Shown here: positions 6,666 through 16,946 of the stretch, in pieces | Numbering within the stretch: position 1 is the first letter of the stretch | How the letters are laid out: every line of letters begins with the position of its first letter | Source of the DNA: an uncultured Alphaproteobacteria bacterium | Lineage (GTDB): Bacteria; Pseudomonadota; Alphaproteobacteria; Rs-D84 | Reading direction: 5' to 3' | Assembly: GCA_934272785.1 (NCBI GenBank) | Contig: CAKQSE010000001.1 | Location: 41,212 to 105,211 of the forward strand | DNA length: 64,000 nucleotides | The notes under the pieces: model-generated | Databases searched by the model: none | Seen by the model: the letters and a program-made list of their open reading frames with translations, nothing else | What the model was told of the DNA's origin: nothing | Translations under genes and position numbers: made by a program

Positions 6666-9600
6666 ATGGCGTTAGCCGATGACAAAATACAATTGTTTGA
6701 TAATATAAATAATAGATTGGCTGACGATCTGAAAAATGAGATACGAAAGCATTCAAAGTTGTCTATAGCGGCGGCTTGTTTTTCTATCTATGCGTATCAA
6801 AATTTGAAAAAACAATTAGAAAATATTGATGAACTGCGTTTTATTTTTACGTCTCCGACATTTTTGAATGGGGTGCCTCATAAAGAGCAGCGCGAATTTT
6901 ATATTCCACGTCAAGAACGTGAGCAAAGTCTGTATGGAACTGATTTTGAATTGCGGTTGCGCAATCAGATGACGCAAAAAGCCATATCAAAAGAATGTGC
7001 AGACTGGATTCGGGCCAAGGTTCAATTTAAGTCTAATAAAACAAATCGTTTTATTCAGCCTTTTATAAATATTGATGGTAGCTATACCTACATTGGTACA
7101 AATGGTTTTACTACAACTGATTTGGGAACAGAAAAAGGCAATGCGTTGGCGATGTATATAACCAGATTGGGAAATGAAAACAGCAAACAGTATCTACATT
7201 TGTTTGATGAAATATGGAATGACCCAGAACAAATGGAAGATGTTAAACAGAAAATTTTGGAACATATTGAAATAATTTATGCCGAAAATGCACCAGAATA
7301 TATTTATATGGTTACGCTGTATAATATATTTAAAGAGTTTTTGAACGATATTTCCGATGATGTTTTGCCGAATGAGGCCACAGGCTTTAAACAGAGTCAA
7401 ATTTGGAATAAGTTATATTCCTTTCAAAAGGATGCAGCACGAGATATTATTCATAAACTAGAAAAATATAACGGTTGTATTTTAGCAGATTCTGTCGGAC
7501 TCGGAAAAACATTTACTGCATTGGCGGTGGTAAAATATTATGAGTGCAGAAATAAAAGTGTATTGGTTTTATGTCCTAAGAAATTACAGGACAATTGGAC
7601 AACGTACAAAGAAAATTACCTGAACAACCCCATTGCTAAGGATAGACTGCGTTATGATGTGTTGTATCATACTGATTTGTCGCGCGATCACGGTATGTCT
7701 GGTGGTATAGATTTGTCCAAAATAAATTGGGGTAATTATGATTTACTGGTTATTGATGAAAGTCATAATTTTAGAAATGGCGGCAAGACTACTGTTGATG
7801 AAGATGGAATTGAAACGTATAACCGTTACAATCAATTGATGGAAAAAGTTATAAAATCTGGTGTTAAGACCAAAGTTTTAATGTTGTCTGCGACCCCAGT
7901 GAATAATCGTTTTGTTGATTTGAAATACCAATTGGAATTGGCGTACGAAGGCATGGAAGATGAACTGAATGAAAAACTAAATACGAAAAAAAGTTTGTCT
8001 ATCATATTTAATAATGCCCAGCGCGCGTTTAATGATTGGAGTAAATTGCCAGAGGAAAAACGCACCACAGAAGAGCTGCAGGGCAGATTGGATCAGGATT
8101 TTTTTGAGGTTTTGGATTCTGTCACAATTGCTAGAAGTCGTAAGCAGATTGAAAAAAGTTATAATATGGCAGAAATTGGGAAATTTCCGACGCGTCTGGA
8201 ACCGGATAATAGATATCCAGCAATTACACTTGATGACAGTTTGGGGATAAACTATGCAGACTTGTTTGGTAAACTGGAACGAGTGTATCTGAGTGTTTAT
8301 TCTCCGTCAAAATTTATATTCCCAAGTAAAGTGCAAAAATATGAGGAGAAATACGGTAAAAAAGCAGGCAAAGGTATTTCGTTGACCGGTCGTGAAATGG
8401 GAACACGCAAATTGATGGCTATCAATTTGATGAAGCGTTTAGAAAGTTCGTGGTTCTCATTTTATGAAACTGCAAAATCCATAGCCAGCAAAATAGACCA
8501 TGCAATAAACGCGATAGAGAAGTTTAAGAACTCTAAGGCTGCCAAAGGACTTAAGTTTAGTATTGAAGATATAGATGACGATGAAATAACGACCTATGGA
8601 GAATATAGTGTTGATTTCAATGACATGGATTATGAAACTTGGCTGCACGAATTGCAAAATGACCAAGAGATATTCAAGAATATTGTGGATCTATTCAGCC
8701 GTATGACCCCGGAATTGGACAACAAATTAAACGAATTAAAATCTATTATTAAAAATAAAATAGAACATCCATTAAATGCAAATAATAAAAAGGTACTGAT
8801 ATTTACGGCATGGGCCGATACCGCACAATACTTGTACGACAATATATCAAAATATGTATCGAAAGAATTTGGTTTGAACACAGGTGTTGTGACTGGTGAT
8901 GCGAATACCAGTGATTCCACAATTAAACGCAATGGTGACAAAGGTAAATTTGATTTCAATGAATTGTTAACAATGTTTTCACCGGTATCCAAGGATCGTG
9001 ATGTGTTGAACAATATGCCATCCGAAGATATTGATATTTTGATTGGTACAGACTGCATCAGTGAGGGTCAAAACTTGCAAGATTGCGATTACATGGTGAA
9101 TTTTGATATCCATTGGAATCCGGTCCGTATTGTTCAACGTTTTGGGCGTATTGACCGTATCGGCAGTCGGAATGATAGAATTCAAATGGTGAATTTTTGG
9201 CCAGAACAAGAACTGGATAAGTATATTGATTTGACCAATCGGGTGCAAAATCGCATGGTTGGTGTTGCTATGGCTGGTGCCGGCATGAATGTTATTGGCC
9301 AAGATCAAGATCTGCAATACAGAAAGGCGCAACTAGAAAGAATCAAGACAGAAACACCTGATCTGGAAGATATGAGTACTGGGGTAAACATCATGGATTT
9401 AGGTCTAAATGAATTTAGATTAGAGGTTGTTGATTACCGTAAATTACATCCAGAAATTGAATGCGCGGCCAAGGGTATGCATGCAGTTGTTGCGGCAAGC
9501 CATGATGCGCCGTCTGGCGTCATATTTATACTGCGTAATGTAAATAATGGTGACAAGATAGATAGACAGAACAGAATCCATCCTTTTTATATGGTGTATT

Positions 9601-9911
9601 TGTCCAATTCTGGTGATGTTATCTGTGATCATTTAAGTGCTAAAAAGATGTTGGATATTATGGGACGATTGTGTAAGGGCAAAACCGCACCAGACAAAAA
9701 GCTGTGTCAGGCATTTAATGCGGAAACCAAAGATGGGTTTGATATGAAACATTATTCAGATATGTTGAACAAATCTATTCAAACAATCATAAATGTCAAA
9801 GAAGAATCCGATGTGAATAGCATATTTAGCTATGGCGGGTCAACGTTGGGAATAAACAATATCAGTGGGTTGGATGATTTTGAATTAATTTGCTTTGTGG
9901 TGGTAAAATGA
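6666..9911 (+). CDS. SNF2-family (Rad54-like) DEAD/DEAH-box helicase with ~250-aa N-terminal extension
   Basis: Motif I ILADSVGLGKTFTALAVV, motif II LLVIDESHNFRN, motif III LMLSATPVNNRF, and motif VI HWNPVRIVQRFGRIDRIGS. The N-terminal ~250 aa has no intact HxK…D motif and may be a degenerate PLD-like domain. ATG 6666 has an RBS aaaaagg. Confidence 0.85.
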   Translation: MALADDKIQLFDNINNRLADDLKNEIRKHSKLSIAAACFSIYAYQNLKKQLENIDELRFIFTSPTFLNGVPHKEQREFYIPRQEREQSLYGTDFELRLRNQMTQKAISKECADWIRAKVQFKSNKTNRFIQPFINIDGSYTYIGTNGFTTTDLGTEKGNALAMYITRLGNENSKQYLHLFDEIWNDPEQMEDVKQKILEHIEIIYAENAPEYIYMVTLYNIFKEFLNDISDDVLPNEATGFKQSQIWNKLYSFQKDAARDIIHKLEKYNGCILADSVGLGKTFTALAVVKYYECRNKSVLVLCPKKLQDNWTTYKENYLNNPIAKDRLRYDVLYHTDLSRDHGMSGGIDLSKINWGNYDLLVIDESHNFRNGGKTTVDEDGIETYNRYNQLMEKVIKSGVKTKVLMLSATPVNNRFVDLKYQLELAYEGMEDELNEKLNTKKSLSIIFNNAQRAFNDWSKLPEEKRTTEELQGRLDQDFFEVLDSVTIARSRKQIEKSYNMAEIGKFPTRLEPDNRYPAITLDDSLGINYADLFGKLERVYLSVYSPSKFIFPSKVQKYEEKYGKKAGKGISLTGREMGTRKLMAINLMKRLESSWFSFYETAKSIASKIDHAINAIEKFKNSKAAKGLKFSIEDIDDDEITTYGEYSVDFNDMDYETWLHELQNDQEIFKNIVDLFSRMTPELDNKLNELKSIIKNKIEHPLNANNKKVLIFTAWADTAQYLYDNISKYVSKEFGLNTGVVTGDANTSDSTIKRNGDKGKFDFNELLTMFSPVSKDRDVLNNMPSEDIDILIGTDCISEGQNLQDCDYMVNFDIHWNPVRIVQRFGRIDRIGSRNDRIQMVNFWPEQELDKYIDLTNRVQNRMVGVAMAGAGMNVIGQDQDLQYRKAQLERIKTETPDLEDMSTGVNIMDLGLNEFRLEVVDYRKLHPEIECAAKGMHAVVAASHDAPSGVIFILRNVNNGDKIDRQNRIHPFYMVYLSNSGDVICDHLSAKKMLDIMGRLCKGKTAPDKKLCQAFNAETKDGFDMKHYSDMLNKSIQTIINVKEESDVNSIFSYGGSTLGINNISGLDDFELICFVVVK

Positions 9912-16900: not shown

Positions 16901-16946
16901 TGTTGTGGACACTTATGAACATTTGATGGATATTGTAACCAAATAA
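13944..16946 (+). CDS. res: Type III restriction enzyme Res subunit (SF2 helicase + PD-(D/E)xK nuclease)
   Basis: Walker A LSVEMETGTGKTYTYTKT, a motif II variant ILILDEPQSMGG, and a C-terminal nuclease motif YNPDW…VYFVAETKG (PD…ExK). Size ~1000 aa, typical for Type III Res. Confidence 0.9.
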   Translation: MVMKIKYKSQDFQTDATNAICDVFVGQPKQRAQSYILDPGQSNDNTSDLIHFDAYANPAVAINNDVVLENINKQQIKVGIKPNEEPINGLLNLSVEMETGTGKTYTYTKTMYELNKRYGWSKFIVIVPSVAIREGVYKSFQSTAEHFKDQYGKAIRFFIYNSAHPNDIEGFATDSNIHVMIINMQAFASRGEDARRIYMKLDTFRSRRPIDVLAATHPILILDEPQSMGGPVVTRMMQSFNPLFILRYSATHRDPHYMVYRLDALDAYNRKLVKKIAVRGISVLGDTATNGYIYVSKINVFPNKNPTVTMEIDYQNATQITKRTLNFEHGDNLYDRSNRLEEYKDRWVITDIDARDDSVHFENGTVLHVGDGVGNMNEEQIRRIQIRETINAHLEQEERLFERGIKVLSLFFIDEVAKYRTADDQGGVYAQMFEQEYVAAVQDRLSQLGLNPEYEKFLRGTDAHKSHAGYFSIDKKGKIQDSKVGRSETSASKEGDVAAYDLIMKDKERLLSREEPVRFIFSHSALREGWDNQNVFQICTLKQSTNDVSRRQELGRGMRLCVNQNGDRMDYSVLGDSIHKINVLTVVASESYEAFAKGLQSEYNEELKNRPRVITPQLFKQAIRLETGETHPVTEEESRRIYNHLIRKNYIDDNGNLTQDFYTAKTTGVLVMPEGFPADEIIRIAESVYRPIEIENRNKTRVNIDINKKNFAKQEFQELWNRINKKSAYTVDFASDELERKAIESLNDNLHITPVTVVVTGGFIKEITENGFVDGDRVARRTVVKTAEVGLKYDLIGKIAEGTQLTRKCVANILRGIRKETFEQFKANPQDFITKAIGLINNEKATTVIEHITYNPVDDHFDMSIFTEPGKQILADKAVKTDKHHIYNYVDADSDIEKNMATELEHQDDVCVYAKLPRGFYINTPVGKYNPDWAIAFKQGAVKHVYFVAETKGTMETLNLKPVELAKINCAKKHFQAISGDNVKYDVVDTYEHLMDIVTK

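Follow-up and report, generated by a model that had tools for sequence, protein, structure and literature searches.

The window analysed here, a stretch of 64,000 nucleotides (nt) from the genome of an uncultured Alphaproteobacteria bacterium, holds a gene cassette at positions 6666–16946 that is a widespread, apparently unnamed, four-gene version of Type III restriction-modification (R-M), and its copy of the cassette is intact. The unit consists of four core genes, encoding an SNF2-family ATPase, a DUF4391 protein, a Type III methyltransferase (Mod) and a Type III restriction endonuclease (Res), and of one cargo gene placed between DUF4391 and Mod. We put the probability that SNF2, DUF4391, Mod and Res constitute a single four-component, methylation-based restriction system at roughly 0.6.

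The original prediction for this DNA had described a five-gene block on one strand with overlapping start and stop codons, and open reading frame (ORF) calls bore this out. On the plus strand these are the SNF2-family ATPase at 6657/6666–9911 (1084/1081 amino acids, aa), DUF4391 at 9890/9908–10546 (218/212 aa), the AlbA_2 cargo gene at 10543–12009 (488 aa), Mod at 12009–13925 (638 aa) and Res at 13944–16946 (1000 aa). The junctions at 9908/9911, 10543/10546, 12009 and 13925/13944 were all recovered as given. The helicase and DUF4391 genes, and likewise DUF4391 and the cargo gene, share ATGA overlaps at 9908/9911 and 10543/10546, respectively, the cargo and Mod genes meet in a TAATG overlap at 12009, and Mod and Res are spaced by 18 nt. 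The proposed helicase start at 6666 was also retained, as orthologues begin at the same ATG (MAL...).

Distribution of the cassette was evaluated by scanning a genome collection with an alignment of the helicase, which gave at least 600 pattern matches and 560 confirmed relatives; such relatives are encoded in at least 560 species genomes. Locus analysis was performed on the best 80 helicase relatives (54–90% identity, nearly all 54–58%), in which ORFs were called and then searched with the DUF4391 profile and the window proteins, and linkage was counted where at least 8 kb of downstream sequence was available. DUF4391 was found in 49 of 49 such loci, and Mod and Res each in 48 of 49. The linkage of the SNF2 helicase and its small partner to Type III mod and res in other genomes, on which the original prediction had been made to depend, therefore holds. 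Both the strand and the order SNF2, DUF4391, Mod, Res were fixed in the analysed loci, which span at least nine phyla (Pseudomonadota, Bacillota, Bacteroidota, Actinomycetota, Verrucomicrobiota, Fibrobacterota, Synergistota, Spirochaetota and Campylobacterota). Hosts among the best 80 include Alphaproteobacteria, Clostridia, Bacteroidales, Fibrobacter, Synergistaceae, Opitutales, Spirochaetia, Campylobacter, Eggerthellaceae and Selenomonadaceae. The spacing between SNF2 and DUF4391 had a median of about 7 nt.

The same four genes in the same order were also observed in distant cassettes in which DUF4391 is only 24–28% identical to that of the window. These are found on Escherichia coli IncFIB plasmids and a Mycolicibacterium plasmid, in Erysipelothrix phi1605, on Lactococcus pJM1D and on plasmids of Listeria and Enterococcus faecium, and in Bacillus cereus and Providencia. 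The E. coli version (pJH51-3, positions 3193–12220) occurs in 10 of 5426 complete E. coli genomes and is 51% identical to the window cassette in SNF2, 47% in Res, 42% in Mod and 26% in DUF4391. The inspected region of an E. coli carrier plasmid, considered as a possible phage-plasmid, holds a resistance island and a few phage-like genes. A search of plasmids with the window Res resolved three identity tiers, of 43–49%, 34–36% and 26–28%. In the upper two tiers SNF2 and DUF4391 lie upstream in 7 of the 8 plasmid cassettes inspected, while the 26–28% tier corresponds to the P1/EcoP15I type, a plain mod-res pair. This pattern marks the SNF2-DUF4391 pair as the property of a distinct Type III branch. 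It had been proposed that Mod and Res are complete by themselves and the other three genes accessory; for SNF2 and DUF4391 this does not stand, as both are as conserved as Mod and Res within the clade, the helicase being the most conserved of all. A definition of the complete Type III unit as a two-gene mod-res pair likewise fails to describe the gene content of this clade, given the 48 of 49 loci and 7 of 8 plasmid cassettes above.

Co-evolution was compared across 50 complete cassettes. Median pairwise identity was highest in SNF2 (0.67), equal in Mod and Res (0.50 each) and lowest in DUF4391 (0.32), and all six pairs of identity matrices were correlated (Spearman 0.44–0.76, Mantel p = 0.001). 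The catalytic motifs of the three enzymes were unchanged in 50 of 50 cassettes, which points to purifying selection on catalysis in SNF2, Res and Mod. In the helicase these are GLGKT278, DESH364 and QRFGRIDRIG824 (Walker A, DExH and motif VI), in Mod DPPY119, and in Res GTGKT100, DEPQ223 and PD932...ETK950–952.

Judged by their sequences, Mod and Res are a genuine Type III pair in which the expected catalytic residues are intact. Mod (12009–13925, 638 aa) is predicted to be a beta-class N6-adenine methyltransferase (PF01555; PADLOC MTase_III, E 1.5e-204) that matches the Mod of PDB entry 6k0w (9.6e-68) and EcoP15I Mod (5.2e-58), and its FSGSATT motif is conserved. DNA homology of Mod to two relatives (L011 and L002), which amounts to 76–84% on either side, is lost between approximately 12581 and 13288; the central variable region so delimited (12582–13287) is the presumed target-recognition domain. 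Tandem Repeats Finder detected no phase-variation repeats in mod. Res (13944–16946, 1000 aa) combines a superfamily 2 (SF2) ATPase with a C-terminal PD-(D/E)xK endonuclease (PADLOC REase_III, E 1.7e-291; Pfam ResIII and RE_endonuc; EcoP15I Res, E 1.6e-70), and scores 396 bits against NCBIfam PRK15483, under the cut-off of 564. Among near-identical gut-metagenome contigs with the same context, two (L004, 14493–17560, and L005, 14508–17536) have Res broken into two ORFs and two others (L006 and L007) have it intact, a pattern suggestive of repeated Res inactivation in one population.

The SNF2-family ATPase (6666–9911, 1081 aa; Pfam SNF2-rel_dom, ResIII and Helicase_C) carries its SNF2 core between two conserved regions, an N-terminal one of about 245 aa and a C-terminal one of about 210 aa (870–1081), and residues 1–245 are strongly conserved among homologues. 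Its sole full-length match was the PADLOC model 'C3a139 HKD+Snf2' (E 1.5e-113). DrmD, BrxHI/II, DpdE and ZorD are its best named relatives, all of them partial matches far under the NCBIfam cut-offs; for DrmD the models NF038317 and NF038318 gave 145.8 bits (cut-off 610) and 108 bits (cut-off 950). The resemblance to DrmD and to BREX helicases that had been pointed out is accordingly real in that matches exist, but they lie below the family cut-offs. In PADLOC the protein also gave weak partial matches to HmaA and to DrmA. The closest solved relative by sequence is RapA, the RNA-polymerase recycling factor.

The label 'HKD+Snf2' would lead one to expect a degenerate phospholipase D (PLD/HKD) domain at the helicase N terminus, and sequence searches did not support one. 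No Pfam match to the N-terminal domain, PLD included, was obtained even at E 10, a 14-sequence profile found no sequence match in the PDB, and no conserved His or Lys of the HxK(x)4D motif was present among 82 homologues. For the window helicase the 'HKD' part of the label is thus unsupported. C3a139 itself was recorded in four genomes, solely for its proximity to Type III CRISPR-cas loci (Shah et al. 2018, PMC6546367), and the label stems from that 2018 census of genes near such loci, not from a defined system. The window helicase belongs to the same protein family, which it matches end to end; unlike the window helicase, however, C3a139 was never recorded as part of an R-M cassette.

The DUF4391 protein (9908–10546, plus strand, 212 aa) is translationally coupled to the helicase and matches PF14335 over its full length (E 1.6e-43, 149.8 bits against a gathering cut-off of 29.9). 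DUF4391 proteins form 1625 clusters at 50% identity. In the AlphaFold2 model (pLDDT 95) it is composed of an alpha/beta domain (1–150) and a C-terminal helical hairpin (161–211), for which no confident structural relatives were found; PADLOC and NCBIfam gave no match to the protein. Only two residues are near-fixed, K15 (48 of 50) and W125 (49 of 50). DUF4391 is the fastest-evolving of the four proteins and shows no invariant residues of catalytic appearance; a role as adaptor, regulator or sensor is more likely than an enzymatic one. Domain fusions were checked for functional clues and the only informative case was a 380-aa protein (P0087) in which an ASCH (PUA-like) domain is attached C-terminally to DUF4391; it probably arose by fusion to a cargo gene, which may have come from the first slot. 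In Erysipelothrix phi1605 (MF172979.1; L093 12270–12983) the gene in the DUF4391 position is labelled 'methyl-accepting chemotaxis protein', almost certainly a mis-annotation of DUF4391. The cassette there adjoins mef(A)/msr(D) and recombinase genes.

The fifth gene of the block stands apart from these four. It encodes a 488-aa protein with SLFN_AlbA_2, HATPase_c_4 (GHKL-like) and Fic-like_C/winged-helix domains (10543–12009, plus strand, Pfam) and occupies a variable slot that is preceded by DUF4391 and followed by Mod. The gene is precisely missing in L011 (labelled Candidatus Enterousia sp.), L012 (uncultured proteobacterium) and L002 (a metagenome scaffold), and is present in L013 and L001. 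In L011, window positions 6614–10553 and 12009–12581 map to one unbroken stretch at 80–83% identity, and a 70%-identical DUF4391 homologue sits in an SNF2-DUF4391-Mod-Res cassette without an AlbA_2 gene. The view that all five genes form one system was for this reason abandoned: the AlbA_2 gene is interchangeable, being missing from 80%-identical relatives and replaced elsewhere by dozens of unrelated genes.

The two cargo junctions (10520–10560 and 11990–12030) are alike, each consisting of AAAGGA, 7–8 nt and ATGAyyGAnAA. This likeness indicates a precise, modular insertion of the cargo, in which the gene that follows retains its ribosome-binding site and start context, and cargo thus seems to be exchanged as a start-to-start module with translational coupling retained. 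Both junctions also resemble the uninterrupted DUF4391/Mod junction of relatives. A perfect tandem repeat of 12 nt in 4.5 copies lies in frame at 11761–11814 on the plus strand (Tandem Repeats Finder score 108, 100% matches) and encodes (QVTQ)n; it is situated in the linker before the winged-helix domain, where a change in copy number would alter linker length only.

Insertions between the core genes are frequent. Spacing exceeded 300 nt between DUF4391 and Mod in 49 of 62 loci and between Mod and Res in 36 of 55, and the inserted ORFs were highly varied, 92 of them forming 73 sequence clusters. Slot genes include RhuM, YhcG/DUF1016, AAA_21, AAA_15, RloB, AbiH, Abi_C and AbiJ as well as ThsB-TIR, TIR_2, KAP NTPase and HerA-like genes, and the same insertion pattern was seen in Pfam-annotated contigs. 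AlbA_2-like genes recur in either of the two slots (L013, L052 and L063). The cargo protein of the window weakly resembles the Schlafen-domain parts of Argonaute-associated PADLOC models and, in the PDB, 3lmm, 2kyy and Schlafen 8. From its domains, the AlbA_2/GHKL/winged helix-turn-helix gene is probably independent cargo, a Schlafen-like defence or regulatory gene. A role in defence is plausible in light of 2026 papers in which prokaryotic Schlafen-domain proteins are described as anti-phage nucleases.

The cassette was compared with known systems. Classical Type III enzymes (EcoP15I, EcoP1I and StyLTI) hemimethylate an asymmetric site, and for cleavage they require ATP and two unmodified sites in inverse orientation. 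They have in common with the cassette the placement of mod before res, the DPPY and SF2 ATPase motifs and a PD-ExK nuclease at the C terminus of Res. They differ in being without the SNF2 and DUF4391 genes that precede mod in the window cassette and in their lack of operon-internal cargo slots, and Res of the P1/EcoP15I type is only 26–28% identical to that of the window.

The closest parallel in logic is MANTIS (formerly Gao_RL or Gao_29), in which the AAA+ ATPase MtsA and the small MtsB load the methylase and license the helicase-nuclease (MANTIS preprint). According to the same preprint, the ATPase and the small protein are needed for methylation as well as for restriction, the methylase modifies asymmetric sites on a single strand, inverted sites are favoured as they are by Type III systems, and the extra ATPases are proposed to be checkpoints against autoimmunity. 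MANTIS and the window cassette have the same logic, in which four parts, an ATPase, a small co-factor, an N6-adenine methylase and a helicase-nuclease, follow one another in this order, and both use two ATPases. The first two parts are, however, non-homologous, being a DUF499 AAA+ ATPase and DUF3870 in MANTIS as against SNF2 and DUF4391 in the window, and the PglX-like methylase and PLD-helicase effector (MtsD) of MANTIS contrast with a Type III Mod and a PD-ExK Res. Identity with Gao_RL/MANTIS was ruled out, as no window protein matches MANTIS parts in PADLOC or Pfam and the proteins differ.

An SNF2-family ATPase is also combined with an adenine methylase and a helicase/nuclease effector in DISARM class 1 and ARMADA. 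In ARMADA (ArmA–D) the SNF2 protein ArmA was experimentally required and ArmC is a YprA-family helicase with DUF1998; in DISARM class 1 (DrmD, DrmMI and DrmABC) the SNF2 helicase DrmD is a core component. The effector of both differs from the Type III Res of the window, and DUF4391 is absent from the descriptions of DISARM and ARMADA consulted. DISARM was rejected as the identity of the cassette because DrmA, DrmB (DUF1998) and DrmC (PLD) were unmatched in the five proteins and the scanned flanking ORFs and DrmD was under its cut-off; ARMADA was rejected because the YprA-family DUF1998 helicase (ArmC) is missing from the cassette by Pfam and PADLOC. BREX was likewise set aside, with no PglZ or BrxC match for the five cassette proteins among the hits listed and with the BrxHI and BrxHII matches of the helicase partial. 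On the B. cereus plasmid pJ75_1 (NZ_AP022971.1 50789–64531; L096 1–10970 and L098 10790–16001), drmA and a DUF1998 gene (drmB) precede the cassette by 33 nt, in the same orientation. With its six genes the block resembles a hybrid between the DISARM core and the cassette, an arrangement that hints at functional kinship with DISARM.

Internal hotspots that gather unrelated defence genes are a feature that the window cassette shares with Hma and Type I hsd operons. Hma consists of HmaA (SNF2 with a C-terminal nuclease), HmaB (DUF1156) and HmaC (DUF499), and 66.5% of its operons carry insertions, AAA_21 included. Its core proteins differ from those of the window and the HmaA match is weak and partial; as its defining components are missing, Hma was ruled out as the identity of the cassette.

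The statement that the gene content matches no named system held for PADLOC 2.0, NCBIfam 20 and the searchable literature. The further suggestion of a previously undescribed system was right in that the unit is apparently unnamed, but its architecture is neither rare nor specific to this locus: it is widespread and is annotated gene by gene in RefSeq, where the extra pair appears as 'helicase-related protein' and 'DUF4391 domain-containing protein'. PADLOC 2.0 has no DUF4391 model and would call the Type III pair only, and neither the SNF2 protein nor DUF4391 is represented by a model in NCBIfam release 20 (June 2026). Full-text searches for DUF4391 or PF14335 returned nothing relevant, with subscription papers thinly covered and an earlier mention therefore possible; the mentions found were a gene-enrichment table and a preprint on phage Goslar. 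The latter (bioRxiv 10.64898/2026.04.21.720040, section 12) uses 'DUF4391' twice in a passage on DUF7941 proteins, which looks like a typographical slip, leaving the paper silent on the DUF4391 family. A 2025 survey of the lactococcal defensome defines Type III as 'one M and one R'.

The cassette is most likely a dual-motor R-M system similar in logic to MANTIS, DISARM class 1 and ARMADA. By homology, Mod, with its swappable recognition domain, would recognise a short asymmetric site and mark host DNA, and Res would cut unmarked DNA together with Mod. The SNF2 ATPase and DUF4391 may form a second ATP-driven module in the same machine, one that by the precedent of MANTIS, ARMADA and DISARM class 1 would most likely load, license or potentiate Mod-Res on DNA. 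Joint function of the four genes is supported by their linkage in 48 of 49 loci, its persistence in divergent cassettes, the Res tiers, co-divergence, invariant motifs, translational coupling and these precedents. A more specific proposal is put forward tentatively, at a little less than even odds. According to it the system is distinct and obligately dual-motor, with SNF2 and its partner required to load or license the Type III methylase-nuclease, a convergent counterpart of MANTIS, DISARM and ARMADA whose operon serves as a docking site for swapped defence genes with coupling preserved.

Several observations weigh against joint function. Co-inheritance could mean tight linkage and no more, and the 80 loci are the best-scoring helicase relatives as opposed to a random sample. 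Mod-Res may be self-sufficient, since enzymes of the EcoP15I type work alone and the window pair keeps all canonical motifs. Nor is there a need for the two halves to be co-translated, since the space between DUF4391 and Mod admits unrelated genes. Exceptions to the linkage were also found. On Lactococcus cremoris pJM1D (L095 1220–7140) SNF2 is split by IS712, an insertion sequence (IS) of the IS21 family, and DUF4391, Mod and Res look intact; the plasmid is a natural mutant from which it could be learned whether methylation and restriction persist without the helicase. An IS-riddled Aeromonas salmonicida plasmid in the upper Res tiers carries Mod-Res without SNF2 or DUF4391. A locus of an uncultured Prevotella sp. 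(L072, 6521–16507) is the only one with ample downstream sequence that has SNF2 and DUF4391 and no Mod or Res; the genes after DUF4391 lie on the opposite strand, and the locus is probably a truncated cassette. Finally, searches with the DUF4391 fold and the helicase N-terminal domain gave no functional clue.

One alternative is that two systems stand side by side, in which a self-sufficient Mod-Res is accompanied by an autonomous SNF2-DUF4391 module for defence or back-up, for example one triggered upon inhibition of R-M or acting on a different feature of the invader, the two being adjacent through co-transfer and defence-island linkage. Such an arrangement would fit the unrelated genes in the DUF4391-Mod slot in 49 of 62 loci, the retention of every canonical EcoP15I-type motif in Mod and Res, the kept Mod-Res beside a disrupted SNF2 on pJM1D and the lone SNF2-DUF4391 pair of the Prevotella locus, and single SNF2-nuclease proteins such as HmaA are known to defend alone. 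We nonetheless consider it unlikely. Fixed-order linkage was maintained across phyla in 48 of 49 loci and down to 24% DUF4391 identity, and it survives frequent insertions that would be expected to break up a fortuitous neighbourhood. In the loci examined the SNF2-DUF4391 pair was never next to another kind of R-M system, the four genes co-diverge, and the helicase is without a recognisable active nuclease domain and hence without an obvious effector.

A safety or establishment role for SNF2-DUF4391 appears improbable. Here the pair would not belong to the killing machinery but would restrain or displace Mod-Res on host DNA, as in restriction alleviation, or delay restriction after transfer into a new host, and the cassette could thereby pass between genomes without autoimmunity. 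The high mobility of the cassette, which is found on plasmids, a prophage or integrative and conjugative element (ICE)-like element and islands across many phyla, with helicases about 55% identical, is in keeping with this, as are the known ability of SNF2 enzymes to strip proteins from DNA, RapA being the closest solved relative, and the autoimmunity checkpoints proposed by the MANTIS authors. Res, however, is often the inactivated gene (L004, L005, L047 and L063), which gives no sign that loss of SNF2 is particularly toxic, and pJM1D retains an intact Res with its SNF2 disrupted. Type III enzymes, moreover, already avoid self-cleavage through the two-inverted-site rule. It is very improbable that the cassette is a non-defence epigenetic or DNA-transaction module, one whose SNF2 motor would remodel complexes of DNA and protein where the DNA is methylated, for instance in methylation-dependent regulation or repair. 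Type III mod genes are phase-variable regulators in some pathogens and the helicase has RapA as its nearest solved relative, but mod of the window is without phase-variation repeats, the nuclease motif of Res is intact and invariant, the Mod recognition region varies between close relatives, the location is on mobile elements of low GC content, and the slot genes are typical of defence (AbiH, AbiJ, ThsB-TIR, RloB/AAA_21, YhcG and RhuM).

The whole cassette is best read as a horizontally mobile module, present here on a decayed serine-recombinase element. The block was confirmed to be of low GC content, with values of 0.32–0.42 over 6000–17000 as compared to 0.46–0.52 in the flanks. GC content falls past approximately 6000, near a strong bidirectional terminator-like hairpin (6082–6102) that lies at the left edge of the low-GC block; the 5' side comprises gyrA, tRNA-Glu, a RamC_N-like gene and this hairpin. 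The AT-rich non-coding stretch upstream of the cassette (6170–6350) contains several copies of a ACAGGGAATTT-like motif and is not shared with related cassettes. A scan for promoters and terminators gave a site count no higher than in shuffled sequence.

The degraded integrative element that had been noticed beside the cassette was also verified. It comprises a DUF2924 gene (17140–17646, plus strand, Pfam) and a large serine recombinase pseudogene (17633–19198, plus strand, Pfam Resolvase and Recombinase), and a tRNA-Gln gene (19371–19444, minus strand, ARAGORN) follows next to the recombinase remnant. The 3' end of the DUF2924 gene overlaps the start of the recombinase, which is interrupted by a single in-frame TAG (17837–17839) after 68 N-terminal codons and is otherwise full length. 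DNA alignment showed that the DUF2924/recombinase flank is not common to related cassettes, and a search for att-like direct repeats around the island yielded none that were convincing.

Detection tools and surveys treat Type III R-M as a matter of two genes, while a whole branch of it, found in hundreds of species and on plasmids of E. coli, Listeria, Enterococcus and Lactococcus, carries SNF2 and DUF4391 in addition. The native copies on E. coli plasmids make the role of this pair directly testable, and the cargo slots within the operon are a practical hunting ground for new defence genes. Should the pair be required, annotation and cloning of such loci would change, as clones of mod and res only might give false negatives, and DUF4391 would gain a function. 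The cassette would then be a further case for an emerging rule, by which extra ATPases act as checkpoints or loaders in methylation-based defences.

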